A stretch of 59,338 nt of DNA, the filler included. It is 7 parts of 7 records of this genome, joined end to end, with 100 filler letters (N's around TTAATTAATTAA, not from the genome) between each part and the next. Parts side by side here need not be neighbours in the genome. Positions count along the whole stretch, not along the records: positions 37,280 to 52,804 come from SRR31156797_51716; 6 more parts are not named here. One strand, 5' to 3'. Shown piece after piece: positions 5,847-52,904 of the stretch (position 1 is its first letter; every line of letters starts with the position of its first letter). The position numbers were made by a program, and so were the translations under genes. The notes under the pieces were generated by a model, which had not been told where the DNA came from, made no database searches, and saw only the letters and a list, made by a program, of their open reading frames with translations.

Positions 5847-5946
5847 NNNNNNNNNNNNNNNNNNNNNNNNNNNNNNNNNNNNNNNNNNNNTTAATTAATT
5901 AANNNNNNNNNNNNNNNNNNNNNNNNNNNNNNNNNNNNNNNNNNNN
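5847..5946. other. Artificial contig linker (N44-TTAATTAATTAA-N44)
   Basis: Ns flank a 12-mer with stops in all six frames. The same unit occurs six times. Confidence 0.98.
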
Positions 5947-11131: not shown

Positions 11132-11231
11132 NNNNNNNNNNNNNNNNNNNNNNNNNNNNNNNNNNNNNNNNNNNNTTAATTAATTAANNNNNNNNNNNNN
11201 NNNNNNNNNNNNNNNNNNNNNNNNNNNNNNN
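11132..11231. other. Artificial contig linker
   Basis: N44-TTAATTAATTAA-N44. Confidence 0.98.
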
Positions 11232-24401: not shown

Positions 24402-24501
24402 NNNNNNNNNNNNNNNNNNNNNNNNNNNNNNNNNNNNNNNNNNNNTTAATTAATTAANNNNNNNNNNNNNNNNNNNNNNNNNNNNNNNNNNNNNNNNNNN
24501 N
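24402..24501. other. Artificial contig linker
   Basis: N44-TTAATTAATTAA-N44. Confidence 0.98.
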
Positions 24502-29960: not shown

Positions 29961-30060
29961 NNNNNNNNNNNNNNNNNNNNNNNNNNNNNNNNNNNNNNNN
30001 NNNNTTAATTAATTAANNNNNNNNNNNNNNNNNNNNNNNNNNNNNNNNNNNNNNNNNNNN
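29961..30060. other. Artificial contig linker
   Basis: N44-TTAATTAATTAA-N44. Confidence 0.98.
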
Positions 30061-37179: not shown

Positions 37180-37279
37180 NNNNNNNNNNNNNNNNNNNNN
37201 NNNNNNNNNNNNNNNNNNNNNNNTTAATTAATTAANNNNNNNNNNNNNNNNNNNNNNNNNNNNNNNNNNNNNNNNNNNN
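37180..37279. other. Artificial contig linker
   Basis: N44-TTAATTAATTAA-N44. Confidence 0.98.
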
Positions 37280-37429
37280 GTAGGCTTTCATAAACAGGGC
37301 GGCCATGTGGTCATCGGCATCCTTGCTTGCCGGGGCGGCATGCGAAATTTTCATGGTATATTCGGCGGCGTGCACCGGTGCGGCAAAAACGAACATTACC
37401 AGAGAGAGTAGTACCAATACTTTTTTCAA
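37280..37429 (-). CDS. TRAP transporter substrate-binding protein (DctP), N-terminal fragment, 3' truncated
   Basis: Signal peptide followed by AEYTMKISH. GGAGG RBS; follows dctQ and dctM. Confidence 0.7.
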
Positions 37430-37463
37430 AATGATCCTCCTTCAACAAATGATTTATATTCGC

Positions 37464-38750
37464 TCAAATCATTCCCAGGGCTTTGGGAACAAATAAGGCC
37501 AGTGGTGGATAGTAGGACAGTAAAAAAATCACCAGAATCTGCGCGATCCAAAACGGCAGCATGGCCCTGGCGACGGTTTCAAATTTTAGTCCGCTGATAG
37601 TGGTTATGACAAACAACACCAGTCCGAAAGGCGGTGTGGCCAGACCGATGCACAAGTTTACACACATGACTATGCCGAAATGCAGGGGGTCGACTCCCGC
37701 CTGTGTCATAATAGGCAAAAGGATAGGACCCAGGATTAGTATGGCCGGCCCGGCGTCCAGGAACATTCCGATGAAGAGTAAAATCAGGTTGGCCATGAAG
37801 ATAAGCACATAAGGGTTGTCGGTAATGCCCAATATCTGGGCTGACAACCTGGCGGGCACTTGGGATATGCCTGTGATCCAGGCAAATACCACGGCCGCGG
37901 CCACCATGAACATTATGTTGGCCGAGGTGAGCCCGGCTTTTTTCAGAATATCGGGCATATCTTTCAGGGTGATGGTTTTCAACACAAATAAACTGATGAA
38001 AAAGGCATAGCCTACAGCCACTGCCGCGGCTTCCGTGGGCGAGAAAAACCCGCCCACGATGCCGCCCAGTATAATAACCGGAGTCAAAAGGGGCAGAAAG
38101 GCCTGGACAATTGTCCGCATCGCTTCTTTATAAGTATAGCGGCTTTCATGGCGTGGGAAGTTATATTTAACGGCGAAGTAGGCCGTGACGCCCATCAGTG
38201 ACAAGCCTGTGAGCAGTCCTGGTATAATCCCGCCGGCAAAGAGCGAACCGACGGGCATGTTCATGACATAGGCGTACACGACCATGACGATTGAAGGCGG
38301 AATAATAGGGCCTATCACGGAACTTGCCGCTGTAACCGCGGCTGCGAATTCTTTTTTGTAGCCGTCCTTTTCCATGGCCGGGACGAGCATGCTGCCGAGA
38401 GCCGAAGTGTCGGCCACGGCCGAGCCTGAAAGCCCCGCGAACAGCATGCTGGCCATGATGTTTACATGGGCAAGGCCGCCTCGGAAACGTCCTACAAAGA
38501 GATCGGAGAACTGGACAAGGCGCTGGGTTATTCCGCCTCGGTTCATCAGTTCTCCGGCCAGAATAAACAAAGGAAGCGCCAGAAGCGGAGACTGATTTAT
38601 TCCTGCAAATAGGCGCTGGGGGATCATCTTGAGAAACACTGTCTGGTCGGTGACAATAAACGTGCTTATGGGGGCGAATATGAGGCCGTAGGCCACGGGC
38701 ATGCCAACCAGAATAAATATAATGAGCAGGTAAAAGTAACTAACGGACAT
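37464..38750 (-). CDS. TRAP transporter large permease (DctM)
   Basis: LLALPLFILAGELM, SGSAVAD, IIPPS and TPPFG motifs. Confidence 0.93.
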   Translation of the reverse strand: MSVSYFYLLIIFILVGMPVAYGLIFAPISTFIVTDQTVFLKMIPQRLFAGINQSPLLALPLFILAGELMNRGGITQRLVQFSDLFVGRFRGGLAHVNIMASMLFAGLSGSAVADTSALGSMLVPAMEKDGYKKEFAAAVTAASSVIGPIIPPSIVMVVYAYVMNMPVGSLFAGGIIPGLLTGLSLMGVTAYFAVKYNFPRHESRYTYKEAMRTIVQAFLPLLTPVIILGGIVGGFFSPTEAAAVAVGYAFFISLFVLKTITLKDMPDILKKAGLTSANIMFMVAAAVVFAWITGISQVPARLSAQILGITDNPYVLIFMANLILLFIGMFLDAGPAILILGPILLPIMTQAGVDPLHFGIVMCVNLCIGLATPPFGLVLFVITTISGLKFETVARAMLPFWIAQILVIFLLSYYPPLALFVPKALGMI

Positions 38751-38766
38751 GGGCTGATCCTTCTTT

Positions 38767-39300
38767 TTAAATCTCTGCTTTTGCTAACGTATTGCGCTCC
38801 CGGATGAATGATTCCAGGAAGTTTTTTGATTCAATAATTATGACCAGAGTGAATGATATGGGCATGGCGACGTACACCCAGAACATGGACAGGAAATCCA
38901 TGGATATCATATTGCTGTCCATTGTGGTTTTAGTATAGACGGCGCTGTAATACAGGAGCACCGCGCTAGTGAAGATCACCAGCACGTGAATGAGTCTCCC
39001 GACAAACAACTCGATCGGTTTGGGCAGTCTTGCCTGCAGCACAAGAACCGCGACCAGTTCCTGCTTTTCGAAAATGACAGGGAGTCCGAGGAAGGTCATC
39101 CAGACCATCATGTACCTGGCCAGTTCTTCCACCCAGGCCAGCGGCAGGTTGAAGCAGGACCGAAGTATGACCCCGGCCAGAACAGACCCGGCCAATACGA
39201 TCATTACCAGGATAAGCAGACGGTTGGGCAGCCAGAGCAGGACCTTGATAAGGGCATCCAGTTTATTTAATAAATTGGACAAGGCGGATTGGCTCTGCAT
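38767..39300 (-). CDS. TRAP transporter small permease (DctQ)
   Basis: W.EELARY...W..FLG motif; four TM segments. Confidence 0.88.
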   Translation of the reverse strand: MQSQSALSNLLNKLDALIKVLLWLPNRLLILVMIVLAGSVLAGVILRSCFNLPLAWVEELARYMMVWMTFLGLPVIFEKQELVAVLVLQARLPKPIELFVGRLIHVLVIFTSAVLLYYSAVYTKTTMDSNMISMDFLSMFWVYVAMPISFTLVIIIESKNFLESFIRERNTLAKAEI

Positions 39301-39303
39301 TTT

Positions 39304-40314
39304 TCATTCTCCTCGTACCTTGACCATTACTTTATTCTTTGTTTGAGGCCGCAAGGCTGCTTCAAACGCCTCGCCGATGTCGGCCAGTGGGTAAATAACG
39401 TCATCCAACAGTTTGGTGATGTCCCGGGCGAAGTCGCCTTTGAGCAGCGTTGAGGCCTTGTGGAAGTCTGCAGTTGAATACACCTGAGTTCCGACAAAGA
39501 TGACTTCGGACTTGGTCAGTTCCAGCAGGGGGATGCTGAACTTTTTATCAAAAACGCTCGTAATAATCATGGCGTCCAGCATGTACGCGGACTCCATGAG
39601 GGCGTTGAAAACCGTTTCGCTGCCAGAGCATTCGCAGCAGATTATTCGGGAGTCCCCGGGATTGTAGTCTGACAGGTCGGTTACGGTGGGGATGGCGAGT
39701 TCCTGCAGGGTGGCCAGGCGCACGGGATTTCTTTCCAATACGGTGACGTGCATGTCCGTGGTTCTGGTCAGGGTCAGGGCTAGGCAGGCGCCGATGGCTC
39801 CTCCGCCTGTTACGAGAATTTCCCTGGCCGGACTCTGTAGCCGATTCAGGAATGAGGCGGATCGTACGGAAACGGCCAAAGGCTCCATAAGGGCCGCCGG
39901 AAGCAGGGCTTCTTCATTAGGCAGCGGGATTACATTTTCCCGGGGAATGAGTAATTCCTCGCTGAAGCAACCGGGCCGTTGGTACCCTAGAATTATACGT
40001 TTTTTACAGATATTGGGGCGTTTTTGCCTGCAGAACTCGCATTCCCCGCATGCTATAAGCGGGATGACCACCACGGGCAGGCCGGGCTGCACATCAGTAA
40101 TATCGGGTCCTACCGATTTGATGACGCCGGAGGCTTCATGACCAAATACATAAGGGTATTGCGCCCTGGGGTGTTTGCCAAGATAGGCGTGAACATCGCT
40201 GCCGCACACGCCGCAGTAGGCGATATTCACCACTACTTCACCATTGCCCGGTGTAAAGGGAGCACTTTCCTTTAACTCGAATCGGCCGGGCTCCATGAGT
40301 ATTGCCTGAATCAT
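39304..40314 (-). CDS. Zinc-dependent (polyol/sugar) dehydrogenase, MDR family
   Basis: CGSDVH, GHE, CGECEFC...C and GGGAIG motifs. Start reassigned to ATG 40314 (MIQAILMEPG), which has an AGAGG RBS and avoids overlap with the aldolase. Confidence 0.85.
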   Translation of the reverse strand: MIQAILMEPGRFELKESAPFTPGNGEVVVNIAYCGVCGSDVHAYLGKHPRAQYPYVFGHEASGVIKSVGPDITDVQPGLPVVVIPLIACGECEFCRQKRPNICKKRIILGYQRPGCFSEELLIPRENVIPLPNEEALLPAALMEPLAVSVRSASFLNRLQSPAREILVTGGGAIGACLALTLTRTTDMHVTVLERNPVRLATLQELAIPTVTDLSDYNPGDSRIICCECSGSETVFNALMESAYMLDAMIITSVFDKKFSIPLLELTKSEVIFVGTQVYSTADFHKASTLLKGDFARDITKLLDDVIYPLADIGEAFEAALRPQTKNKVMVKVRGE

Positions 40315-40348
40315 TTTTTCCTCTCTATGCATTGCAGTTGATGTTTTT

Positions 40349-41194
40349 CTATGCTTTATTCGAGGCGTTAAAGCACCTGATTCTTTCGCGGACGCACTCA
40401 TAAACAGCCTGCATTCCACTGGTCCATGCCGAGAGCATGCCTATGTCGGGCGTGTCATTAAGCGTCTTGGCGACTGCATTTCTGAAACGCACCTGGAGCA
40501 TGGTGTTTATGTTTATCTTCCTTATGCCGCCCTTTATTGCTTCCGGGTAACATTCATCCATTACACCCGAAGCTCCGTGGAGCACCTGGGGGCGGTTCAA
40601 TTTGGTAGAAAGCTCTTTAATCAGTTCGCAATCTATTGAAGAATTCTGGCTTTGCATACCGTGCACCGAGCCGACGGACACTGCAATCAGGTCTATTTTG
40701 GTTTCTTGGGCAAAACGGGCGGCCTTATCCGGGTCCGTGTTATTTTCAGCCGTGTCGTTGGATGAGGCCCCCTCCATCGGGACAATGCCTATTTCACCTT
40801 CTACAGAAGCGCCGCAGGCATGGCCCATTTCCGCAACCTTGGCGGTGAGGCGAACATTTTCTTCAAACGGCAGGCTCGAGCCGTCGAACATGACGGAACT
40901 GAATCCAAGATCCAAAGCCTGCCGGACAAGTTCCAGGCTCCTGGCGTGATCCAGGTGCAGGGCAATAGGGACTTGTGACTTTTCTATCATCTTGTGAATG
41001 GCTGCTATCAGAGGGGATATATCTTCAAGAAACTGCACGGTGGATGGGCCGACAGCGAGAATAAGCGGTGCGTTTTCCGCTTCTCCCGCCCTTATTGCGG
41101 ACAGGGCGAGTTCAATGTTGTGAACATTAAATTGTCCTAAGGCCCAGTCCGTCGGCTTGTCGTGCAACAAGGTGGTAATTGGGACTGCTTTCAT
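40349..41194 (-). CDS. Class II ketose-phosphate aldolase (GatY/Fba-like)
   Basis: LHLDH, SVMFDGS, EGEIG, VGSVHG, LHGASG and KININT motifs. Confidence 0.9.
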   Translation of the reverse strand: MKAVPITTLLHDKPTDWALGQFNVHNIELALSAIRAGEAENAPLILAVGPSTVQFLEDISPLIAAIHKMIEKSQVPIALHLDHARSLELVRQALDLGFSSVMFDGSSLPFEENVRLTAKVAEMGHACGASVEGEIGIVPMEGASSNDTAENNTDPDKAARFAQETKIDLIAVSVGSVHGMQSQNSSIDCELIKELSTKLNRPQVLHGASGVMDECYPEAIKGGIRKININTMLQVRFRNAVAKTLNDTPDIGMLSAWTSGMQAVYECVRERIRCFNASNKA

Positions 41195-41239
41195 TATGTA
41201 ACTCCTGCTTGTTGATGCATTGACTGGTATTTAAATAGT

Positions 41240-42136
41240 CTAATGGTGATGTAAAAATTCAAGAAGCGAGGCCGTGTCAGGAATGCCTTCACGTCCTCCG
41301 GGTTTTGTGCATTTCATTGCTGCCGCCGCACAGGCGAACCGCGCCGCTTCCGCGAAATTGTCTCCCCTGGAAAGGCCGAGCGCCAGGGCGCCATGGAAAA
41401 CGTCGCCGGCTCCGGTGGTATCCACTGTATTCACGGTGAAAGACGGTTGATGCATTACTTCTTCACCTTCTATCCACATGCACCCGTTGTCTCCGATTGT
41501 GACGCAGGCGATTCCTTTGCAGCAGCTAGCAGCCTTGAACAGGGCTGACTTAATCCCGACTTCACCGGTAAAAGACGTTAGTCCGTCTTCGGAAAAAACC
41601 GCATATTCCGCCAGGGAGATTACACGTCCAAGGTTTGGATGATCGGTCTTTTCAACGTCCAGGACTGATGGGACGCTCTGGTCATCGGCAAGCTCCAGGA
41701 CATGTTGCGCCCCTTCCAGCCACTTTGTATCGGCCAGAACCATTTTTATTTCCGGAGGAAGGGCGTTCGAAAGGCAGTCCGTGGATCTGTAAAGGTCATT
41801 ATCCACATATGCGGCAATGGCCCGTTCCCCATTTGCATCTACCATTACAGCGGCGACAGGCGACTGCACATCAGGAATAGCTCGGACCCCGGAGACGTCC
41901 ACTCCATATTCGGAGAGTTCACTTATGATATTTTGGCCGGCATTATCATCGCCAACCATGCTCCATATCCGGACCTTGCCTCCAAGGCGCGCAATGGCGA
42001 CAGCGGCCGTGGCCGCCGGGCCTCCGCCTGCTTCCTTATGCTTTAACGCTGATACTTTTCCCGGGATTAGAGGAAGTGAATGAACAAAGAAGATCTGATC
42101 CCAGACTGCGCGTCCGACACATAATATTTCGTCCAC
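41240..42136 (-). CDS. PfkB-family carbohydrate kinase, YihV (sulfofructose kinase)-like
   Basis: GGGPAATAAVAIARLG, AVFSEDGL, DTTGAGDVFHGA and KCTKPGGREGIP closely follow E. coli YihV as recalled. GTG start with AGGAGG RBS. Confidence 0.8.
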   Translation of the reverse strand: MDEILCVGRAVWDQIFFVHSLPLIPGKVSALKHKEAGGGPAATAAVAIARLGGKVRIWSMVGDDNAGQNIISELSEYGVDVSGVRAIPDVQSPVAAVMVDANGERAIAAYVDNDLYRSTDCLSNALPPEIKMVLADTKWLEGAQHVLELADDQSVPSVLDVEKTDHPNLGRVISLAEYAVFSEDGLTSFTGEVGIKSALFKAASCCKGIACVTIGDNGCMWIEGEEVMHQPSFTVNTVDTTGAGDVFHGALALGLSRGDNFAEAARFACAAAAMKCTKPGGREGIPDTASLLEFLHHH

Positions 42137-42157
42137 AGGGGCTTCCTCCTTTTGGGC

Positions 42158-42177
42158 TGTGATCTAATCCGATCACA
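42158..42177. promoter_or_regulatory. Candidate operator (perfect inverted repeat) in the divergent promoter region
   Basis: TGTGATC-taatcc-GATCACA about 20 nt upstream of the kinase start. Confidence 0.5.
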
Positions 42178-42425
42178 ATTGTGGTAAATTTGTTACACAA
42201 TGGTTTCTTTGTGTCAACAATAAAAGGCCAAATTTGAGAAAAAGTGGAAAATAATTTACAATTGCTAAGAAATGAGGCAATCCTTCTGTGGTTATCATAT
42301 TGAAATAAAATGGTTAATTAATAGTATGGCTATTGTTGGCTTGTAAGAAGCTTGACATTTAAAGTGATATTGTGTAATAAAATTACCATGAAGCCCAGTA
42401 ACAAGACAACACGCCTGGAAAAGGA

Positions 42426-43202
42426 ATGAAAATGAAAATCAGCGATCGCAGAAAAAAACTTGTTGATATTGTTACCAACAGCGGTTTTATCAGTATTGAA
42501 GGACTCTCGGCCCAGCTTGGGGTTTCGGCCCAGACCGTTCGCAGGGATATAGCCTTTCTGGATAGTAAGGGCGAGATTGTTCGGCATCATGGCGGCGCGG
42601 GAATCCGTTCGAGCATAGTAAACGTCAATTATCAGGACCGCCATTCACTAATGGCGGAATCAAAATTAGCTTTGGCCGAACAGATTTCAGCAAGCATTTC
42701 CGCCAAGAGTTCTCTGTTTATTGCCGGCGGCACGACCATGGAGGCAGTAGCCAGGTCCCTGGTCAGACATAATGATCATAAAATCATTACCAATAGTATT
42801 CGTGTTGCTGAAATCCTTAACCGAAATGATTCCTTTGAGGTTATTATCACTGCCGGGACGCTTCGGAAAAACACCGGCATCATCTTTGGTCCTGACACAA
42901 TTGAGTCCGTTAAAAAATTCCGCTGTGATTTCGCCGTCCTCGGTTGTGGAGGAATCGAAGATGATGGAGTTTTTCTGGACTTTAATTCACCGGAAGTAGC
43001 GACAGCCAGAACAATGATCGCCAACAGTCGCCAGGTTTTTATTGGAGCTGACAGATCGAAGTTCCCGGGAAAAGCCAATGTCCTGTTGGCCGATGCTGAA
43101 GAAGTGGACGCACTTTTTACGGATTTCCCGCCCCCGGCGCCCTTGGCCGAGGTTTTATCAGTTAAAGGAGTTGACGTCAGAATAGCCGGGAGCATTTCCT
43201 AG
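42426..43202 (+). CDS. DeoR/GlpR-family regulator, CsqR (YihW)-like
   Basis: VSAQTVRRD HTH, RHHGGAG..SS.VN, ITNS.RVA and LFTD.PPP motifs. Divergent from the catabolic operon. Confidence 0.88.
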   Translation: MKMKISDRRKKLVDIVTNSGFISIEGLSAQLGVSAQTVRRDIAFLDSKGEIVRHHGGAGIRSSIVNVNYQDRHSLMAESKLALAEQISASISAKSSLFIAGGTTMEAVARSLVRHNDHKIITNSIRVAEILNRNDSFEVIITAGTLRKNTGIIFGPDTIESVKKFRCDFAVLGCGGIEDDGVFLDFNSPEVATARTMIANSRQVFIGADRSKFPGKANVLLADAEEVDALFTDFPPPAPLAEVLSVKGVDVRIAGSIS

Positions 43203-43237
43203 GAAACAAAACTTGTTTATGTTTGAATTGCAGGCTT

Positions 43238-45658
43238 TTAGTTTTGGTTGACGGCGGGTAGGTATATCTTGAAATCGGCGCCATGGCCTACTTTGCTGCG
43301 GCATGTTATATGGCCGCCATAGTTCTTGACAATGCCGTAAACCGAGGCCAGGCCCAAACCCGGTCCTTGGCCGATTTCCTTTGTCGTAAAAAACGGTTCG
43401 AAAATATGGGCCATGGTTTCCTGGTCCATGCCGTGACCCGTATCGGAAAATGTTAAAATAACATAATTTCCGGGTTGAACGTTCAAATCGTTTTGTGAAT
43501 AATCCTCGCTCAAAGTCACATTTTCTGTCGCGATGGTGAGTTTGCCTCCATCGGTCATGGCCTCGGCGGCGTTAGTTCCAAGATTCTTTATAATTTGTTC
43601 AATCTGGGCGGGATCGGCATTGACTTCCCACAGATTTTCATCTAGATAGAGTTCTATTTTTTCATCTTCAGCTATTTTTTCTTCCAACAGCATCCCATTT
43701 TTTTCCAATTCCCTGTTCAGGTTAAGAGGGCGGCGTTCCGATTCCACTTTACGACTGAATTGAAGAAGCTGCCGTACGAGTTTGGCCGCGTTGTCGCTCG
43801 CATTTTGAATTCCCTTTAATTTTGAAAAATCAGGATCATTCTCAGTTTTATCCATGAGGATTATCAGAGTGTACCCGGCAATGGCCTGGAGCAGGTTATT
43901 GAAGTCATGGGCGACGCCGCCGGCAAGCGTTCCTACTGCTTTCAGTTTTTCAGCTTGCTGGAGTTGGCCCCTGAGTTTATCCTGCTCGGCCTCGGCTCGC
44001 TTGCGGTCGCTGATGTCCAGAATAATCGCGGCAAATAAAGCTTCCGTTCCATACTTGAGAAGCTGCAAATGCACTTCTACATAATAAAGCGATTGATCCT
44101 TACGCTGGTGCACGGTCTCAAATACTATCTTCTCTTTTTCCGCTTTAAGTAAAGGTGAAATGATTTCTTTAAAATACTCAGGCGTAAATTCCGGTTTCAA
44201 ATCGATTGGAGTCAGTTTCCTGAATTCCTCCATTGAATAACCAAGGTTTTCCTGAGCCGCGCTGTTAACATGTGTAAAATTCAAGGACTCCGCCTCGAAT
44301 AAATATATTTCATTCAGAGAATCCTCAAAAATACGTGCAAACCTGGCGATTCTATCCTCGGCGAGTTTACGTTCAGCGATTTCCTTTTGTAGATGATGGT
44401 TGACCCTGGTCAGTTCAACGGTGCGATCCGTAACTCTTATTTCCAGTTCATCATGGGCTGTTCTCAACTCCTGTTCGGCCTTGCGCCTTCTTGCTCGGTG
44501 AATGAGCAAGCCAAGGATAAGTATAGTTTCAACAACAAATAATGCGGCCAAGCCGATTATTCTCCATTTGTAAAGTTCCCAAAACGAATACTCCCTGAAA
44601 CGGATTATGCTGCCGGCAGGCAGGCGGGATTCGCTGATTCCCCAGCGCTGCAACTGGCGCCAATCAAACATGTAAACGTTGGACCCTTTGATAATCGGTA
44701 TGTCTTCCGGCTTTTCGCCGTTCAGGATGCGCAGACCCATTTCGGCGATTTGGGCGCCTTCCGCTTCCGCGCTGGATACGCGGCCGCCCACAATTCCTCC
44801 CCCAAGAAGAGAATCCCACAGACCATACAATGGAGCTGATGAAGCAGTTGAAATTTGTGATAATATGTTTCTGGGGATAAATTTGTTACCTGCGCCGTCA
44901 ACGAGCGTCAAAATATAAAGGCCGATGGTATGATCGGGGAGCTTGGCGACTCTGTTCAGGAGCTCATCCATTGGCAGTCCAGTTAAGTCGATGAATTCAA
45001 AGCGGTCCTGGTAATTATTAAATACTTTGCGCGCCTCTGATTCGTAAAAGCGATCCATAGCGGAAGAGCCGGAAATAATGGCAATATGCTTGGCTTCCGG
45101 GTGCAATTTTATCGCCAGATCAAGAGTGCCCATAACATCCAAATCAGAGAAAAGGCCGGTCATAGTTGACCTTATGTTGATGTTCTTCATGTCTCTTGCC
45201 GTGGAGATAAGCACGATCGGAACATCCGAAAACAGGGGTTGCCCATGGTTAATCAGGAAATCTGTCGCCGAAACATCAACGGCAATGATTAAATCCATGT
45301 TTATGCCGGCATATTTGTGTTCATACAGATCAAGTAACATCTTTACATAGGCGGGATCGAAATTTTGGGAGAGACCTGTGAATTCGGCGTGCAGCTTTGT
45401 ATTTATATCGGAATTCTCTTTAAATGCTTTGTAAATAGCCTGATTAACAGATTGTTGCCAGGGCATGCCGTAGTTGTGGGAATTAAGGATCAACACATGT
45501 TTGGGACGTTCTTGGCCCGGACCTGATTTATTATCCGCGGCGAGAGCAGGAAAGGTGGAGGCTAATAAGCCTGTCAATAAGACCGAAGTGACTATATAGA
45601 TGGAAAATATAAGTAAATATTTATAGTTATCTGAATTGTTCTCCGACCGAATTCGCAT
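43238..45658 (-). CDS. Membrane sensor histidine kinase (periplasmic ABC-binding-like domain, PAS, HisKA, HATPase)
   Basis: [26 protein letters not shown] and G.GLGL motifs; PAS segment; two TM regions. No C-terminal receiver. Confidence 0.9.
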
Positions 45659-45997
45659 ATTACCAAGTCTTTCGGCCTACATAGCCTTCTCCGGTTTTTT
45701 GCCCCCTTTTCAATTTCTTCCGTATAAGTTTCTGTTAATTGAGGTCCATGACAGCGCAACTTCAACCAGACCCGGTACAACACGGCGGGCTGCGCTAAAT
45801 CATACCCTTCTTTTTTGATGATAATCGGATTATCCTTTTAAAACAATAGCGTCGGAGAATATGTATTTAACAGCCTTTATATTATCCATAATTTGGTTAT
45901 TAGTGTAATATGGCTTGGTCTTCACCTGGATAATATCAGAGTAGATGGCCGATTTTATTATTGAAATAAAAGCGTCAAAAGAGGAGGCGTCCTGTTT

Positions 45998-46309
45998 ATG
46001 AACATACTTTTCATTATTGCCAGCGACGACGGCGAAACCATTTACAACGCCATGAGACTGGCCAATGTCGGCGTCAAGAAGGGCGACGATGTTAGTGTAT
46101 TTATGCTGGGCAAAGGGGTTTTATTCGAGCAAAGCGGTTCGGAAGCTTTTGACGTGATGGGACAGGTGAATCAATTCGAAGGCGATTTTTACGTCTGAGG
46201 CGTCTGCATGAAAGCCCACGGTCTGGAGGGCTCAAGCAGTTGTCCCATCGCCTGGATGGATGACTTATATGAATTGGCGGCCGAGGCGGATAAAGTTCTG
46301 ACTTTTTAA
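45998..46309 (+). CDS. DsrE/DsrF-family selenoprotein (103 aa, UxxC; in-frame TGA 46196-46198 read as Sec)
   Basis: The track ORF stops at FYV-TGA, but the frame continues GVCMKAHGLEGSSSCPIAWMDDLYELAAEADKVLTF-TAA, which is a canonical DsrE C-terminus. A hairpin follows the TGA. GAGGAGG RBS. Confidence 0.88.
46199..46245 (+). promoter_or_regulatory. Putative bacterial SECIS element
   Basis: CTGC-A-TGA-AA-GCCC-acggtctgga-GGGC-TCA-A-GCAG stem-loop directly 3' of the recoded TGA, with G residues in the apical loop. Confidence 0.7.
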
Positions 46310-46672
46310 TCCTTCTCCGGGAAGACGAATTGTATGGGACTAACGATTCAAGTTTGCTTGATGCAGAGAATCGTCCCAACTTATTGATTGCGATATGCCG
46401 GCTTCCATGATTTTCTCAGTTTAAGAATATTTGTGAAGCCGACGGATGAAGAGCGCCTGCATGTTAGGGTTCATGCCACTGGGTGCAATCTCTATGATTG
46501 TAGGTAATTATTGCATCCCTTTGCTTTAATGCCTTTTATATTATTAAGGCGGCGCCTTATTGCTGTTCATAAAAAGTTATTTTTCCCAATCTATTTTGTA
46601 TAGTGTTGTTAAAACATTAAGTGATTCCTTGAAAGTGTTCATGACTATTTCGAATAATTGGGGCTATTTATT

Positions 46673-47689
46673 ATGAATTCTTTTGAAAGACGCATTGACC
46701 TGCTTCCGAAAATCGAATTGCATATTCATCTGGAAGGCGCCATCCGTCGTGAAACCGCTTTTGATATGGCGCGCCGGCACGGTAAGCCTCTATCGCCGGA
46801 TAGTCTGCCGGATAATCCCGAATTCGAAGATTTGACCGATTTTGTCATAAAAGTACGTCATGTCCTGTCGCGCTGCCTAATTACATTGGAAGATTATGGA
46901 CGTGCAGCCGTTGAATTATTCCAGGATCTGGCCGACCAAAACGTGCGGTACGCGGAAGTCAGTTTCGACCCCGGCCGAGTGCTTCGCCTGGGGCTTCCCC
47001 TGCCCGAATTGCTGGCCGTCCTGAATAACGCGCGTCAGGCTGTTCAGAAATCCCGCCCCATTCGTATCAGACTGATAGCCGCCTTTGGCCGTGATTACTC
47101 TGGGGAGGAAGCAGCCTGGCTGGTCAGGCAATTAGTTGATTCAGAATCAGCCGGCATCGTAGGCATTGATCTTCACGGCGATGAATCAGCAGGTTCTGCG
47201 GAAAAATTTGTCAAAGCCTTTGATATTGCTCGACAGGCCGGTTTGGGACTCCGCGCCCACGCCGGCGAGGGCCTCGGCGCCTCCAGCATCCGTGAAGCCT
47301 TGGACGTTCTGAACGTGTCGCGTATCGCCCACGGCGTTCGCGCTGTCGAAGACCCGCAACTAATGGATTATATAAGCAACCGGCCCGTCACCCTGGATGT
47401 TTGCCCGACAAGCAACATCATGCTGAAGGTCGCGCCGTCATTGGACGAGCATCCGGTTAGAAAACTGTTCGACGCCGGCATCCACTTGAGCGTCAGCAGT
47501 GACGACCCTTTGTTTTTCAATACCAATGTAACAAAAGAGTACCAAATACTGGTTGAACATCTGAATTTCACTCTGGATGAACTGAAACAAATTAACGAAT
47601 ATTCAGTAATGGGGGCTTTTTTATCTGAAGGTGAGAAAAGGGATCTCCTTAAAATAATGGAAAGCGGCTGGTCGGGGGAAGAAAACTAA
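46673..47689 (+). CDS. add: Adenosine/adenine deaminase
   Basis: LPKIELHIHLEG, HAGE, RIAHG, CPTSN and SSDDP motifs. ATG 46673 preferred as start. Confidence 0.88.
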   Translation: MNSFERRIDLLPKIELHIHLEGAIRRETAFDMARRHGKPLSPDSLPDNPEFEDLTDFVIKVRHVLSRCLITLEDYGRAAVELFQDLADQNVRYAEVSFDPGRVLRLGLPLPELLAVLNNARQAVQKSRPIRIRLIAAFGRDYSGEEAAWLVRQLVDSESAGIVGIDLHGDESAGSAEKFVKAFDIARQAGLGLRAHAGEGLGASSIREALDVLNVSRIAHGVRAVEDPQLMDYISNRPVTLDVCPTSNIMLKVAPSLDEHPVRKLFDAGIHLSVSSDDPLFFNTNVTKEYQILVEHLNFTLDELKQINEYSVMGAFLSEGEKRDLLKIMESGWSGEEN

Positions 47690-47905
47690 AGAGCAGAATT
47701 AAATGATTAAAATTTTCTGTTGAACAACGTCTTTCCTCGATACCTGTCGACTAACCGCCGACAATCAGTATTTTGACCGTTGGATTAAAGTTAAATTTGC
47801 CTGCTATTCTATGTGACCTCGAATAAAAACTCCGTCCATCTTGCAGGTCGCCTTAATGCAGCAATCTTTGGTTTTCAGGATTTTTGAAATCGCACATCTA
47901 CACTT

Positions 47906-48907
47906 TTAGCAAGACCTGCCGGGAATATAACGCTTAATCGGACATTCGGTTCTTGATTGACAAATTCGGCAATCTCTTGGATTGCTTCTACAACCTTGGG
48001 ACGCAGCGAATGAAGAAGCAAGATCGGCATTTTTTTTCGAGTAATATTCATCCGGGATCCAGCCTTGAATGTCTGTTAATCCTGCGGTGGAAACGTTTTT
48101 CAGGCCTGTTGCTTTGGCCGTTTCAAGGCATTGCTTCATCAATTCCCTGGAGGCTCCGGGCAGGCCTTCGAGAACGAAATTAGGCCTGAAGGCAAGAAAA
48201 CAAACAGGTAAATCCAGTGAAATACGGGCTAAAAAACCACATATGGGCGCGATGTCCTCCTCGTTTATATTTGGGATGACTACGATGCGAAATTCCCAGA
48301 TTTTTTCCGGGGCCTTTCTTGCTATAATCTCGGCGTTTCGAAGGACCGGGCTGACCGGCGCTCCGGTCAGCGCCATATGAGTTTCATCATTATAAGCTTT
48401 CAAATCAAAAGTGATGGAGTCGGCAAATGTTAAAATCCTTTCCAGGGATTTTTCAGTCATAAATCCATTTGTATCGAAGTTGACCAGGCACGGTGATTTC
48501 AGCTTTCTTGCCGATTCCATTATCTTTTCTATATAAGGCAGATGAATAGTCGGTTCGCCGCCTGAAAAGAATAAGCGATCCGCGCCCATGCTTCGGCCGT
48601 AATAAGATTCCATTTGCGTAATGGATTCCGAGGCCAGGGATTCCGGATCAAGGTAACCGTCAATCAAGGCATTGTTGTCCGGAAACTGGGAGATGTTCCA
48701 ATTTTGGCAATGGAGGCACTTGAAATTGCAGCCGGCCATAAAAATCGTATAGCTCTCCGGAGGGGCCGGATGAAGCGTTCTAGAAGCTGCGACCGGCCCG
48801 CCCATATGACAGACGCCTGATGATTTTCCAGATAACCTGTCCACACCGCAACGGTGCTCGCAGAGCAGGCACTCTCTCAAGTCTTTTTCCAAATATTTTT
48901 CCATCAT
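47906..48907 (-). CDS. Radical SAM protein (PflX/AmmeMemoRadiSam/activating-enzyme-like) with extra N- and C-terminal Cys clusters
   Basis: CLLCEHRC...C, GCNFKCLHCQNW, FSGGEPT and DTNG motifs; C-terminal C.....C..C.....C. Confidence 0.8.
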   Translation of the reverse strand: MMEKYLEKDLRECLLCEHRCGVDRLSGKSSGVCHMGGPVAASRTLHPAPPESYTIFMAGCNFKCLHCQNWNISQFPDNNALIDGYLDPESLASESITQMESYYGRSMGADRLFFSGGEPTIHLPYIEKIMESARKLKSPCLVNFDTNGFMTEKSLERILTFADSITFDLKAYNDETHMALTGAPVSPVLRNAEIIARKAPEKIWEFRIVVIPNINEEDIAPICGFLARISLDLPVCFLAFRPNFVLEGLPGASRELMKQCLETAKATGLKNVSTAGLTDIQGWIPDEYYSKKNADLASSFAASQGCRSNPRDCRICQSRTECPIKRYIPGRSC

Positions 48908-49102
48908 TTCTAATTATGTCATAAGAAGGAGCAAATTCCAGTTTGAATTCATTAAGCCTCAAATGAATAATTATAGATAACTGTAAGATACAGTATCAGA
49001 AAATAAAGGGGCAGGATGCTTGTCCGCATTAAGGGCAAGGCGCCGCCTGTCGGCTTGTTATTTATCGTCGATATGGCAAAAAGATATTTTTCGGATACAG
49101 GA

Positions 49103-49936
49103 TTACAAAAATATTGCGCCCAGGTTGATGCTCTGTTCAAAATCCACAGATATGGTTTTAGTTTCAAAACCCTCCGCTTCTATTGTCAGACGGTATTCTC
49201 CGCTGTTTTCCAAGAGGCCGTGAAACCAGAAATCGCCGTAATTATTAGTTGTTGTCTCGGCCTGCTTCACATCTTTCCGTGACAGGGTAACTCTTGCCCC
49301 TTCCACGCATTCGTCCTGCTCACTGTTGGCGACGCTGCCGGCGATAAACTCGTGGGTGAACAGTTCAAGATTTCGGAACAAGACTCGCGGCCGGGTATTT
49401 AATTCCGGCCGGTAAAAGTTTAGGTCATTTTCTTTCATCAATTTTTCCATTTCAGGATCATTCACCTGGCGGACGGATAAGGCGTCGGTCGGACAGGCCT
49501 GGACGCACCTGGGTTCGTCCCAGCCATCGTCCAAAAGATGGGCGCAGAGCGTGCACTTCTGAGGGACGGATGTTTCCTCGTTCCAGAAAACAGCCCCGTA
49601 TGGGCAGGCGTCCACAATGAATTTCTGCCTTTTTGCTTTTTCCGGGTAAATTATAACGATGCCGTCTTCACGCTTGTAAACGGCGCCGTTTTGCGCCGCC
49701 TTTATGCAGGGCGCATCATCGCAATGCTGACAGGTAAGCGGCAGATAGGCCGGTTTTACCAAAGGAAAGCCTCCGCCCTCTTTCCTTAGAATGTTCATCC
49801 ACCGCTGCTCGCGGGCGCCCTGGGGCAGGGAATACGGCGACCAGTCGTTTTCCACGAATTCATCCTTGCAGGCCATGAAGCAGTTGTTGCAATCATGGCA
49901 GCGGGCCGCGTCCACGATCATTATCCACTTTTTCAT
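49103..49936 (-). CDS. bthL: Pyrogallol hydroxytransferase (transhydroxylase) small Fe-S subunit
   Basis: CHDCNNCFMACKDE, CQHC..APC and CTLCAHLL...RCVQACP motifs, with a C-terminal Ig/carboxypeptidase-regulatory-like domain. Lies 12 nt downstream of the large subunit. Confidence 0.8.
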   Translation of the reverse strand: MKKWIMIVDAARCHDCNNCFMACKDEFVENDWSPYSLPQGAREQRWMNILRKEGGGFPLVKPAYLPLTCQHCDDAPCIKAAQNGAVYKREDGIVIIYPEKAKRQKFIVDACPYGAVFWNEETSVPQKCTLCAHLLDDGWDEPRCVQACPTDALSVRQVNDPEMEKLMKENDLNFYRPELNTRPRVLFRNLELFTHEFIAGSVANSEQDECVEGARVTLSRKDVKQAETTTNNYGDFWFHGLLENSGEYRLTIEAEGFETKTISVDFEQSINLGAIFL

Positions 49937-49948
49937 TTTACCGCCTCC

Positions 49949-52510: not shown

Positions 52511-52804
52511 ATCATTGACTCCTGTGTTGTTAGTTGAAACGACGCAAAGTCAGGCTGCCGTTTAAAGCTCGTTGTTTTTATTCTTGATGGAATAGCGACG
52601 TAATAATTGGCGCCGCTATTCGTTTGCATGTTTTGACAATATATGCGCCGGCCGGTCTTTTGACCGGCTATCCACTTATATTTGAGTCTCATGATAAGAG
52701 ACAGTAATATGAATAATGAGATTACTTATGAAGACCTGAAAACAGGTCTCCTGTCAATGATAAAAAATGTCAGGAAATAAAATTTTGTATCTATTATATC
52801 GGAT

Positions 52805-52904
52805 NNNNNNNNNNNNNNNNNNNNNNNNNNNNNNNNNNNNNNNNNNNNTTAATTAATTAANNNNNNNNNNNNNNNNNNNNNNNNNNNNNNNNNNNNNNNN
52901 NNNN
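52805..52904. other. Artificial contig linker
   Basis: N44-TTAATTAATTAA-N44. Confidence 0.98.

Follow-up and report, generated by a model that had tools for sequence, protein, structure and literature searches.

Which compound is broken down by an operon that joins a relative of the sulfofructose kinase YihV to a class II aldolase, a Zn dehydrogenase and a TRAP carrier? A sequence-only reading of this DNA had proposed that an anion, possibly sulfonated, is taken up and converted to a ketose, which after phosphorylation at C1 is split into DHAP and an aldehyde. Our comparisons suggest that the operon is best explained as a rare variant of sulfo-EMP-type pathways that includes a dehydrogenase.

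Extent of the locus

The window, that is, the whole stretch of 59,338 nt that was analysed, consists of seven contigs with spacers between them. The operon and its regulator are on the contig at positions 37280-52804. The features are as follows:

37180..37279, no strand: artificial contig joint N44-TTAATTAATTAA-N44 (the form of all the spacers), not biological sequence
37280..37429, minus strand: dctP 5′ end, 50 codons (signal peptide and first mature residues), cut by the contig end
37464..38750, minus strand: dctM, TRAP large membrane subunit, 428 aa (PF06808, 394 bits; TIGR00786, 418.5 bits, above the cut-off)
38767..39300, minus strand: dctQ, TRAP small membrane subunit, 177 aa (PF04290, 87 bits; weak match to YiaM)
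39304..40314, minus strand: Zn-dependent medium-chain dehydrogenase of the polyol/threonine-dehydrogenase type, 336 aa (ADH_N, 97 bits)
40349..41194, minus strand: class II (metal-dependent) ketose-1-phosphate aldolase, 281 aa (PF01116, 259 bits)
41240..42136, minus strand: YihV-family PfkB ketose kinase, 298 aa, GTG start (PfkB, 158 bits)
42137..42425, no strand: divergent intergenic region with candidate operator sites (20-nt inverted repeat and shorter CACAAT/ATTGTG repeats)
42426..43202, plus strand: DeoR-family transcriptional regulator, 258 aa, divergent from the operon (Pfam DeoRC, 135 bits; HTH_DeoR, 63 bits)

The ORFs and Pfam matches agree with the gene order and families originally read from the sequence: kinase, aldolase, dehydrogenase, dctQ, dctM and dctP follow each other on the minus strand, facing the DeoR gene. 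Since the gaps between them are 3 to 45 nt, the genes from the kinase to dctP likely form a single operon. The dehydrogenase ORF is open back to the listed start GTG 40419, but its start is probably ATG 40314, which is preceded by a ribosome site, AGAGAGGA.

What had been taken for a gap beside dctP is the artificial joint at 37180-37279, which means that genes left of it do not adjoin the operon. A scan of the 15.5-kb contig found no isomerase, glycosidase, sulfoquinovosidase, mutarotase, exporter, SLA reductase or SLA dehydrogenase. The claim that no isomerase or glycosidase is visible thus holds for this contig, the side downstream of dctP being absent from the window; because the contig ends inside dctP, the lack of an isomerase is not a property that can be claimed locus-wide. 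Public contigs of 11.4 and 20.5 kb include DNA downstream of dctP, extending 2.5 kb and about 9.9 kb farther on that side.

These limits bear on a rival explanation that we consider rather unlikely, namely that the genes belong to an ordinary hybrid sulfo-EMP cluster that degrades sulfoquinovose or the corresponding glycerol glycoside. The isomerase, the sulfoquinovosidase and further genes of such a cluster would lie downstream of dctP, and its Zn dehydrogenase would either reduce sulfolactaldehyde (SLA) to DHPS in place of YihU or have a side role. Besides the truncation inside dctP and the continuation of the public contigs, several observations are consistent with it: clusters combining YihV with a class II aldolase have been documented (PMC10665668), uptake of SQ or SQGro by TRAP carriers has been predicted (PMC12780224, PMC10507154), the contig has no other candidate for SLA reduction or oxidation, and its remaining genes are in keeping with an anaerobic life, in which reduction of SLA would be expected. 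Arguments against it come from the dehydrogenase and the kinase pocket, described below.

Kinase, aldolase and dehydrogenase

The best PDB match of the kinase is the E. coli sulfofructose kinase 7ag6 (241.7 bits), followed by a match of 170 bits, with YdjH at 59.8 bits. It shares 128 of 295 residues (43%) with E. coli YihV, with no gaps over residues 1-165, and nests with support of 0.915 in a clade that otherwise consists of YihV proteins of enterobacteria, encoded in complete yih neighbourhoods. The term 'YihV-like' is thus well founded, and sequence comparison shows descent of the kinase from YihV-type kinases. Residues D13, K27 and the GAGD Asp245 are kept. However, four positions are changed relative to YihV (Y28V, S95A, N109A and R138K), so that the sulfonate triad K27/N109/R138 reads K/A/K, with position 138 still basic. 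Within the clade, all 10 members have Ala at position 109 and 8 of the 10 have it at position 95, while position 138 is K in four, R in five and G in one. Among 30 kinases with a YihT-like neighbour, by comparison, N109 is found in 26, R138 in 29 and S95 in 28. The altered pocket disfavours plain sulfofructose, and with it the ordinary sulfo-EMP cluster.

The aldolase has an intact catalytic set (D82, H83, E134, H178, H206, N228 and T231). Its best PDB matches are the sulfofructose-phosphate aldolases YaSqiA (8q57, 175.8 bits) and HpSqiA (8q58, 170.1 bits), ahead of FBP aldolases (150-159 bits) and YdjI (145.5 bits). Ser255 occupies the position of the distal-phosphate Arg of FBP/TBP aldolases, which is also missing in SqiA (Ala257) and YdjI but kept in GatY and FBP aldolases; a bisphosphate substrate would require this Arg. 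In the alignment, Gln51/Lys52 of SqiA correspond to Pro50/Ser51, and Asp232 to Asn230. The enzyme forms a small subfamily of its own, outside any recognisable SqiA group, and no SqiA-like sequence, judged by two motifs, was present among its 150 nearest cluster representatives. It is 35% identical to YdjI and 33% to GatY, and in the tree it falls apart from YdjI.

The dehydrogenase keeps C37, H59, E60, E144 (in EPLAV), GGGAIG and E194, as well as the structural-Zn cysteines C89/C92/C95/C103. It represents a very rare lineage, with only 3 close relatives found in 5.8 billion clusters. The best named models are PRK10083 (126 bits), threonine 3-dehydrogenase, IolM and GatD, and the best PDB matches are 8wwd and RspB (about 109 bits). 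Identity to GatD is 22% over the full alignment and 38% over a 104-residue BLAST segment; identity to YdjJ and YdjL is 22-23%. Named enzymes of the polyol/threonine-dehydrogenase type oxidise secondary alcohols, those of polyols and sugar acids. E144 in EPLAV and the names of the best models, secondary-alcohol oxidisers and not aldehyde reductases, argue against a role in SLA reduction.

Two other, unrelated cluster types likewise combine a Zn dehydrogenase with a YihV-like kinase and an aldolase, and lack an isomerase. First, in four otherwise enterobacterial yih loci (L012, L014, L016 and L019) it adjoins yihT, and stands beside YihU in place of YihS. As it coexists with YihU and replaces YihS, it is not the SLA reductase there, a further point against the ordinary sulfo-EMP cluster. 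Second, the dehydrogenase, kinase and aldolase are all present in L020, L025 and L039; on two shorter contigs, L022 and L078, just the dehydrogenase and kinase are visible. The three dehydrogenase groups are separate lineages with 22-29% mutual identity, and the pairing elsewhere is therefore an analogy, not orthology.

Carrier and nature of the substrate

The full-length DctP was read from a 97%-identical contig. This relative (P0122, 346 aa, with PF03480) is 98% identical to the window protein over the 50-codon dctP fragment, and its R151/R172/N212/W195 align to R156/R177/N217/W200 of IseP. As judged from this alignment, DctP keeps the Arg/Arg/Asn anion site, of the type that binds carboxylate or sulfonate. 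The only equivalog matches of DctM and DctQ are to the 2,3-diketo-L-gulonate carrier YiaMN, below the cut-off. The nearest alphaproteobacterial DctP homologues (40-43% identity) are in amidohydrolase contexts, so the likeness of the TRAP carrier is weak evidence.

A neutral hexitol or ketose pathway (galactitol/tagatose, sorbitol/fructose or similar) seems very improbable. Distant dehydrogenase relatives do bear automatic names such as L-iditol 2-dehydrogenase, and the combination of a kinase, an aldolase and a dehydrogenase is reminiscent of hexitol routes. However, the complete anion site R151/R172/N212 of the DctP relative, the K27 and basic residue 138 of the kinase, and the missing Arg of the aldolase all argue against it. 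A tagatose kinase identity was rejected (68.7 bits against a cut-off of 420), and with GatY at 33% and GatD at 22% identity the galactitol/tagatose routes named in the sequence-only reading do not fit the operon.

A carboxylated substrate deserves more attention, although we regard it as doubtful. The TRAP carrier would import an aldonate or longer sugar acid, and oxidation beside the terminal CH2OH would yield a keto-acid sugar. Phosphorylation and cleavage of this sugar would give DHAP and an aldehyde-acid (for example, tartronate semialdehyde). The analogue would be the E. coli ydjF-ydjL cluster, in which RefSeq names an L-glycero-L-galacto-octuluronate kinase (YdjH), a 1-phosphate aldolase (YdjI), Zn dehydrogenases (YdjJ/YdjL) and a regulator (YdjF). 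YdjH and YdjI act as a ketose kinase and then a class II aldolase on an anionic sugar. The make-up of the two clusters is the same (DeoR, PfkB kinase, PF01116 aldolase, Zn dehydrogenase and carrier), the aldolases of both lack the distal Arg, and by analogy the operon probably shares the logic of dehydrogenase, ketose kinase, class II aldolase and anionic sugar. Also consistent with a carboxylate are the nearest named relatives of the dehydrogenase (PRK10083/RspB, L-idonate 5-dehydrogenase and GatD-type), the YiaMN matches, the canonical carboxylate site of DctP, and Y28V, S95A and N109A, which abolish the sulfonate and hydroxyl contacts described for YihV. On the other hand, the kinase is only 24% identical to YdjH and belongs among YihV-type kinases, the dehydrogenases and the aldolase stand apart from their ydj counterparts, the regulator is 28% identical to YdjF, and the E. 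coli carrier is MFS, not TRAP.

Proposed pathway and related clusters

We tentatively propose, at somewhat below an even chance, that the operon serves the uptake of a sulfonated polyol-like anion, its oxidation to a ketose, 1-phosphorylation, and cleavage that yields DHAP together with an anionic aldehyde. What is imported, in which order the reactions run, what the dehydrogenase does and what becomes of the aldehyde are all inferred. The organic anion imported by DctQMP would most likely be a sulfonated sugar alcohol or a closely related sulfonated sugar; a literature search found no natural sulfo-alditol. The NAD-type Zn dehydrogenase would then oxidise the secondary alcohol adjoining the terminal CH2OH, and the product would be a 2-ketose, for instance sulfofructose, an epimer or an analogue. 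The kinase would phosphorylate C1 of this ketose, and the aldolase would cleave the 1-phosphate to DHAP and an anionic aldehyde, for example sulfolactaldehyde, for whose fate the contig holds no gene. The originally suggested scheme fits the parts best, with a sulfonate as the putative substrate: the SqiA structures and K27 favour it, while N109A/R138K, the position of the aldolase outside the SqiA group, the absence of sulfonate-specific genes from the contig and a regulator that is GlpR-like to the same degree do not.

The 'hybrid' of YihV-type kinase and class II aldolase is present as first noted but is not new. Hybrid sulfo-EMP1/2 clusters were described by Sharma et al. 2023 (PMC10665668), and such aldolases were characterised from Hafnia and Yersinia. 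The clusters described there share with our operon a PF00294 YihV-type kinase, a PF01116 aldolase without the distal-phosphate Arg (SqiA) and a DeoR regulator. They encode SqvD or YihS as isomerase, besides a mutarotase and an SLA reductase/dehydrogenase, whereas our contig has none of these but a Zn dehydrogenase. They also differ in the SqiA residues Gln51/Lys52/Asp232 (Pro/Ser/Asn here) and in the kinase triad, altered here. TRAP carriers in sulfoquinovose clusters are also known already (PMC12780224, PMC10507154); the first of these papers notes one for Roseobacter denitrificans. What is different here is the dehydrogenase and the lack of a visible isomerase.

In E. coli sulfo-EMP (yihO-yihW, with YihV, YihT, YihS, YihU and CsqR) the kinase and regulator genes are adjacent as here, the regulators being 42% identical. 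However, in yih the aldolase is of class I and the carriers are MFS, and an isomerase, a GH31 sulfoquinovosidase and YihU as SLA reductase are encoded as well, in contrast to the class II aldolase, TRAP carrier and Zn dehydrogenase of our operon. In five alphaproteobacterial TRAP-linked loci of the sulfo-EMP type (L122, L125, L128, L137 and L138), dctQ, dctM and dctP likewise follow each other in this order, next to genes for a YihV-like kinase and an aldolase. Their DctM is 50-58% and their DctP 33-36% identical to ours; the first three also have a DeoR regulator. They differ in their class I aldolase, PF02952 isomerase, GFO/IDH/MocA protein (SqgA-like by family), mutarotase and aldehyde dehydrogenase, their kinases keep S95/N109/R138, and they have no Zn dehydrogenase.

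Finally, an organosulfonate cluster of Paracoccus wurundjeri (cluster 2; Stewart et al. 2025, PMC12421959) contains a module without an assigned function, made up of a 'threonine dehydrogenase' (MDP0926266), a PfkB kinase (MDP0926268) and a class I aldolase (MDP0926269). Like our operon, it joins a Zn dehydrogenase to a YihV-family kinase and an aldolase without an isomerase, a layout that recurs in L020, L025 and L039. Its carrier is ABC and its aldolase class I, and its dehydrogenase is of an unrelated lineage (22-24% identical). In that study this dehydrogenase failed to oxidise sulfolactaldehyde, and the account of that assay names no other activity for it.

The regulator had been called 'CsqR-like'. 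Its identity to E. coli CsqR is 42% over 244 aa, but it is equally near GlpR (41.7% over 192 aa and 34% over 50 aa), and the top NCBIfam model is GlpR PRK10906 (213 bits, below the cut-off of 331); the name is thus no more specific than 'GlpR-like'. The regulator may act on both divergent promoters. Promoter-like hexamers in 42137-42425 are no more frequent than in shuffles. A repeat search of this region revealed an inverted repeat of 20 nt, 90% complementary (42182-42201 / 42369-42388), and the repeats here are candidate operator sites.

Gene order and surroundings of the operon

The window, 1-59338, consists of seven contigs glued by N44-TTAATTAATTAA-N44 spacers, with artificial joints at 5847-5946, 11132-11231, 24402-24501, 29961-30060, 37180-37279 and 52805-52904. 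The G+C content is 0.33-0.38 in contigs 1-3 and 0.49-0.51 in the other four, and these two classes suggest that several organisms may be the sources. The sequence-only reading had treated 37180-37279 as a gap beyond which more genes of the operon might lie. This is one of the artificial joints; the Cys/Met PLP enzyme and the shikimate-pathway genes encoded on its left side are not neighbours of the operon. On contig 37280-52804 itself, ORFs and family models gave the same gene order as had been described before.

Features of contig 37280-52804 (window positions)
42426-43202, plus strand: DeoR regulator
42136-41240, minus strand: PfkB kinase
41194-40349, minus strand: class II aldolase
40314-39304, minus strand: Zn dehydrogenase, its probable start following the AGAGAGGA ribosome site; the reading frame is open upstream as far as a GTG at 40419
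39300-38767, minus strand: dctQ
38750-37464, minus strand: dctM
37429-37280, minus strand: dctP, first 50 codons, the gene being cut by the contig end
42182-42201 and 42369-42388: 20-nt inverted repeat, 90% complementary, within the 289-nt divergent region
43238-45658, minus strand: sensor histidine kinase
47906-48907 and 49103-52510, minus strand: radical SAM protein, adjoined by a pyrogallol-hydroxytransferase-like molybdopterin enzyme and its Fe-S subunit

Intergenic gaps in the operon are 3-45 nt, and there is no minus-strand terminator-like site inside it. The inverted repeat between kinase and regulator is a candidate operator. Promoter-like and terminator-like sites showed no excess over shuffles, no Rfam family matched contig 37280-52804, and no RNA run is listed as containing this stretch.

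Other genes on the contig encode the sensor histidine kinase, an adenosine deaminase, the radical SAM protein and the molybdoenzyme with its Fe-S subunit. None of them is tied to sugar or sulfonate use, and they suit an anaerobe. The radical SAM protein is weakly similar to glycyl-radical-enzyme activases (87 and 75 bits, under the cut-offs), and the contig carries no glycyl radical enzyme. The sensor histidine kinase is convergent with the DeoR regulator and has no response regulator beside it; its periplasmic part has a match under the cut-off (22.9 bits) to PF04392, an ABC-type substrate-binding protein family.

Contig 37280-52804, which ends inside dctP, carries no sulfoquinovose isomerase, sulfolactaldehyde reductase or dehydrogenase, sulfoquinovosidase or mutarotase, and the remainder of dctP is absent from the rest of the window. 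An ordinary sulfoquinovose cluster could continue beyond the contig end, an explanation that we consider unlikely. Two public contigs reach past the dctP side of the contig end, one of 11,425 nt (run X1) by 2,470 nt and one of 20,517 nt (run X2) by about 9.9 kb. In one metagenome (run X2) the entire 37280-43202 stretch is present at 97% identity on a 20.5-kb contig. In a seawater metagenome (run X3), short pieces that are 90-99% alike, at a depth of 2-6, match parts of dctM, dehydrogenase, aldolase, kinase and regulator.

Kinase, aldolase and regulator

The kinase has the PfkB fold (PF00294, 157.6 bits) with D13 and the GAGD Asp245 in place. Its best PDB match is the sulfofructose kinase YihV of E. 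coli (7ag6, 241.7 bits); the next match scores 170 bits, ribokinases at most 112 and YdjH 59.8. It is identical to E. coli YihV at 128 of 295 positions (43%), gapless across residues 1-165. In a search of 5.8 billion clusters, its close clade consists of P0001 (95%) and P0002-P0009 (57-67%), beyond which many proteins follow at 44-50%, enterobacterial YihV among them. The nearest named relative comes from Desulfovibrio litoralis (48%). In a FastTree phylogeny of 143 kinases, the window clade (support 1.0) is nested in a 46-member clade (support 0.915) that also includes E. coli YihV as well as kinases from metagenome loci in which the yih neighbourhood is complete; the exact sister of the window clade is poorly supported (0.59). 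The earlier description of this protein as a YihV-like kinase is thus borne out by its grouping with a proven YihV.

In YihV, as described by Sharma et al. 2021 (PMC8006165), the sulfonate is held by the triad K27-R138-N109, while S95 and D13 contact sugar hydroxyls. In the window kinase the triad reads K27/A109/K138.

Pocket positions in the window kinase, its close clade and kinases with a YihT-like neighbour
D13: window, kept
K27: window, kept; clade, K 10/10; with YihT-like neighbour, K 30/30
Y28: window, V; clade, V 9/10; with YihT-like neighbour, Y 16/30
S95: window, A; clade, A 8/10; with YihT-like neighbour, S 28/30
N109: window, A; clade, A 10/10; with YihT-like neighbour, N 26/30
R138: window, K; clade, R 5/10, K 4/10, G 1/10; with YihT-like neighbour, R 29/30

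The kinase is thus of YihV-type descent, with a remodelled, roomier anion pocket. The identity of about 43% to YihV was rejected as proof of function, since kinases at 37-41% occur in unrelated contexts, in Hyphomicrobiaceae, a spirochaete and others (L001, beside a K+/H+ antiporter gene, L005, L015 and L021). The scan of genome contigs gave 5 kinase loci, all at 37-41% identity, and among the 80 loci retained by a metagenome scan with the kinase-clade alignment the highest identity was 46%. In the Hyphomicrobiaceae loci L001-L004 (for example, L001:7334-10209), kinases 40-41% identical to that of the window, with the pocket K/V/S/G/R, have genes overlapping the end of a Kef-type K+/H+ antiporter gene, followed by a beta-eliminating lyase gene. 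No sugar genes lie near these kinases.

The aldolase (PF01116, 259 bits) keeps D82, H83, E134, H178, H206, N228 and T231, which correspond to the catalytic and metal residues described for YaSqiA (PMC10665668). In the class II sulfofructose-1-phosphate aldolase SqiA these include the metal ligands His83, His180 and His208, along with Asp82, Glu134 and Asn230. Two SqiA structures are the best PDB matches (175.8 and 170.1 bits), just 11-17 bits over FBP aldolases. At the position of the distal-phosphate Arg, which is present in FBP and tagatose-bisphosphate aldolases (GatY and the S. aureus FBP aldolase included) and missing in YdjI, the window aldolase has Ser255 and SqiA has Ala257; neither has the inter-subunit Arg for a 6-phosphate. 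Loss of this Arg suggests that the substrate would be a ketose 1-phosphate whose tail is not a phosphate.

The other pocket residues differ from those of SqiA. Gln51/Lys52 are replaced by Pro50/Ser51, a mismatch made less certain by a one-residue gap near this loop, and Asp232 by Asn230. In SqiA the sulfonate and the C5-OH are contacted by the backbone NH of Gln51/Lys52 and by Asp232, and proline lacks such an NH. A HMMER scan of 1.84 billion representatives gave 907 aldolase relatives at E 1e-30 or better, few of them near (73% over part of the length, then 48, 46, 42 and 42%). In the aldolase tree, which includes no reference SqiA, the window protein joins 4-5 unnamed representatives (support 0.90-0.97), away from GatY and YdjI. 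No SqiA-like sequence, as defined by two motifs, was found among the 150 representatives nearest to it.

The regulator belongs to the DeoR family. It is as similar to GlpR (155 and 38 bits, 42%/34%) as to CsqR (195 bits, 42%), and GlpR is its best NCBIfam model. The former label CsqR-like therefore adds nothing over a GlpR/CsqR-type DeoR regulator.

The neutral-sugar pathways compared do not account for these proteins. The galactitol/tagatose pathway, to which the operon might have belonged, differs in each enzyme compared: GatY is 33% identical to the window aldolase and keeps the Arg that the latter is without, GatD is 22% identical to the window dehydrogenase, and the tagatose kinase model gave 68.7 bits versus a cut-off of 420. 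A neutral hexitol is highly improbable as the substrate. The myo-inositol IolC/IolJ route was also rejected (IolC, 85.6 bits versus a cut-off of 300).

Transporter and dehydrogenase in related clusters

DctQ and DctM match PF04290 and PF06808. Since the dctP of the window is 50 codons long, its anion site was seen in a relative, P0122 (346 aa, 98% identical to the fragment), which matches PF03480 and whose R151, R172, N212 and W195 align to R156, R177, N217 and W200 of the isethionate-binding protein IseP. Such Arg/Arg/Asn/Trp residues are described as holding a carboxylate or a sulfonate (PMC11668362). Their conservation points to an organic anion as the probable DctP ligand, the kind of which is not told by the site. 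A carboxylated substrate, processed by a logic like that of the E. coli ydj (octuluronate) cluster, would be compatible with this site; we consider it somewhat unlikely. The ydj proteins themselves are not orthologous to those of the operon (kinase 24%, aldolase 35%, dehydrogenases 22-23%, regulator 28%), and the aldolase falls off the YdjI branch.

A DctP match at E 1e-30 or better was present in 63 of 401 alphaproteobacterial genomes. The best of these (40-43%) adjoin amidohydrolase, aldo-keto reductase or creatininase genes, and TRAP likeness was for this reason rejected as proof of a sulfosugar ligand. Matches at 33-36% with the order dctQ-dctM-dctP (L122, L125, L128, L137 and L138; for example, L137:3814-12434) neighbour a YihV-like kinase, a class I aldolase, a PF02952 (SqvD-type) isomerase, a mutarotase, a GFO/IDH/MocA protein (SqgA-like by family), an aldehyde dehydrogenase and a 2-hydroxyacid dehydrogenase. 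Such loci are sulfo-EMP clusters of a hybrid, TRAP-linked kind. Uptake of sulfoquinovose by TRAP carriers has already been proposed (PMC12780224, PMC10507154). The YihV/class II aldolase "hybrid" and its TRAP carrier are of known kinds.

The dehydrogenase has C37, H59, E60, E144 in EPLAV, a Cys4 structural site (C89/92/95/103), GGGAIG at G170-G175 and an acidic E194 following the second strand. Its Zn ligands and GxGxxG place it in the polyol/threonine-dehydrogenase group. The C-terminal domain is under the Pfam ADH_zinc_N threshold, and the best named models (PRK10083, threonine 3-dehydrogenase, IolM and GatD) are all well under their cut-offs; the best PDB matches are 8wwd and RspB. The protein is rare: among 5.8 billion clusters, 54 matched at E 1e-30 or better, and only three of these are close, two of them at 98% and 73% identity and a fragment at 77%; the fourth-best is at 35%. 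Matching contig sizes suggest that these close relatives are encoded together with kinase P0001 and DctP P0122 (20,517 nt), with DctP P0123 (6,288 nt) and with kinase P0009 (12,535 nt). No such dehydrogenase has a contig of the size of those of kinases P0002 or P0008, so that the dehydrogenase may accompany part of the kinase clade only.

Two other types of cluster combine a Zn dehydrogenase with a YihV-like kinase. First, L012, L014, L016 and L019 (for example, L014:3131-11725) contain an enterobacterial-type yih locus with YihT (66-70%), YihU (72-76%), YihV and CsqR, from which yihS, yihQ, yihO and yihP are absent. Beside yihT there is a Zn medium-chain dehydrogenase (RspB- or ketose-reductase-like) that is broadly of the type found in the window operon, and these loci also carry two anion-type MFS carriers and a mutarotase. 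Their kinase has the full K/S/N/R pocket. Since YihU is present, the Zn dehydrogenase there is not the sulfolactaldehyde reductase. Second, L020, L025 and L039 (for example, L039:3519-11925) encode a LacI regulator, an ABC binding protein and permease, a Zn dehydrogenase, an ABC ATPase, a YihV-like kinase and a class I aldolase, and have no isomerase. L037 and L067 are variants of this layout; on the shorter contigs L022 and L078 only dehydrogenase and kinase are visible. The layout is that of the unassigned genes MDP0926266-269 in Paracoccus wurundjeri (cluster 2). In the account given of the P. wurundjeri cluster (PMC12421959), the dehydrogenase did not oxidise sulfolactaldehyde and the isomerase is absent from the cluster.

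The three dehydrogenase groups are 22-29% identical and form no single clade; they were rejected as orthologues. These separate lineages indicate that the pairing of dehydrogenase and kinase arose more than once.

Possible pathway and substrate

The observed operon was confirmed, and its catabolic interpretation is partly supported. In the proposed pathway, the TRAP system would import an organic anion, which the dehydrogenase would turn into a 2-ketose. The YihV-family kinase would then phosphorylate C1, and the aldolase would release DHAP and an anionic aldehyde. It is quite possible, and we suggest it tentatively, that the substrate is sulfonated and that the pathway is initiated by the dehydrogenase. 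Consistent with this possibility are the ancestry of the kinase, an aldolase that, like SqiA, has lost the distal Arg, and the occurrence of related TRAP systems in sulfo-EMP clusters. On the other hand, the kinase triad is altered, the aldolase has non-SqiA pocket residues, the contig carries no sulfonate-specific gene, and no natural sulfo-alditol was found in a literature search.

The described sulfoglycolytic routes, in the papers cited here, start from an aldose, via an isomerase or an aldose dehydrogenase. What is new here is the dehydrogenase, which belongs to a YihV-derived cluster that shows no isomerase and whose kinase pocket is remodelled. As a speculation, which we rate as doubtful, there may be a dehydrogenase-initiated, isomerase-independent sulfoglycolysis, in which a reduced or non-aldose sulfosugar (for example, a 6-deoxy-6-sulfo-hexitol or another anionic polyol) would be imported and turned by the Zn dehydrogenase into a sulfoketose for the kinase and aldolase. 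Such a pathway would have at least three separate origins, combined with TRAP, MFS and ABC carriers and with aldolases of both classes, and the operon of the window would be its anaerobe-type form, in which the kinase pocket is remodelled.

Sulfoquinovose breakdown is a major route of the sulfur cycle. The recurrence of a Zn polyol-type dehydrogenase with a YihV-type kinase and an aldolase, without an isomerase, in three unrelated architectures suggests either that anionic polyols, perhaps sulfonated ones, form an unrecognised pool of substrates or that the sulfoketose is made in a new way. The window operon sits with anaerobe-type genes, a setting in which sulfoglycolysis is poorly charted. 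If the substrate were a carboxylated sugar acid, the operon would represent a new kinase-and-aldolase route for sugar acids, with a kinase of sulfoglycolytic descent. DctP and the three enzymes are small, soluble proteins.
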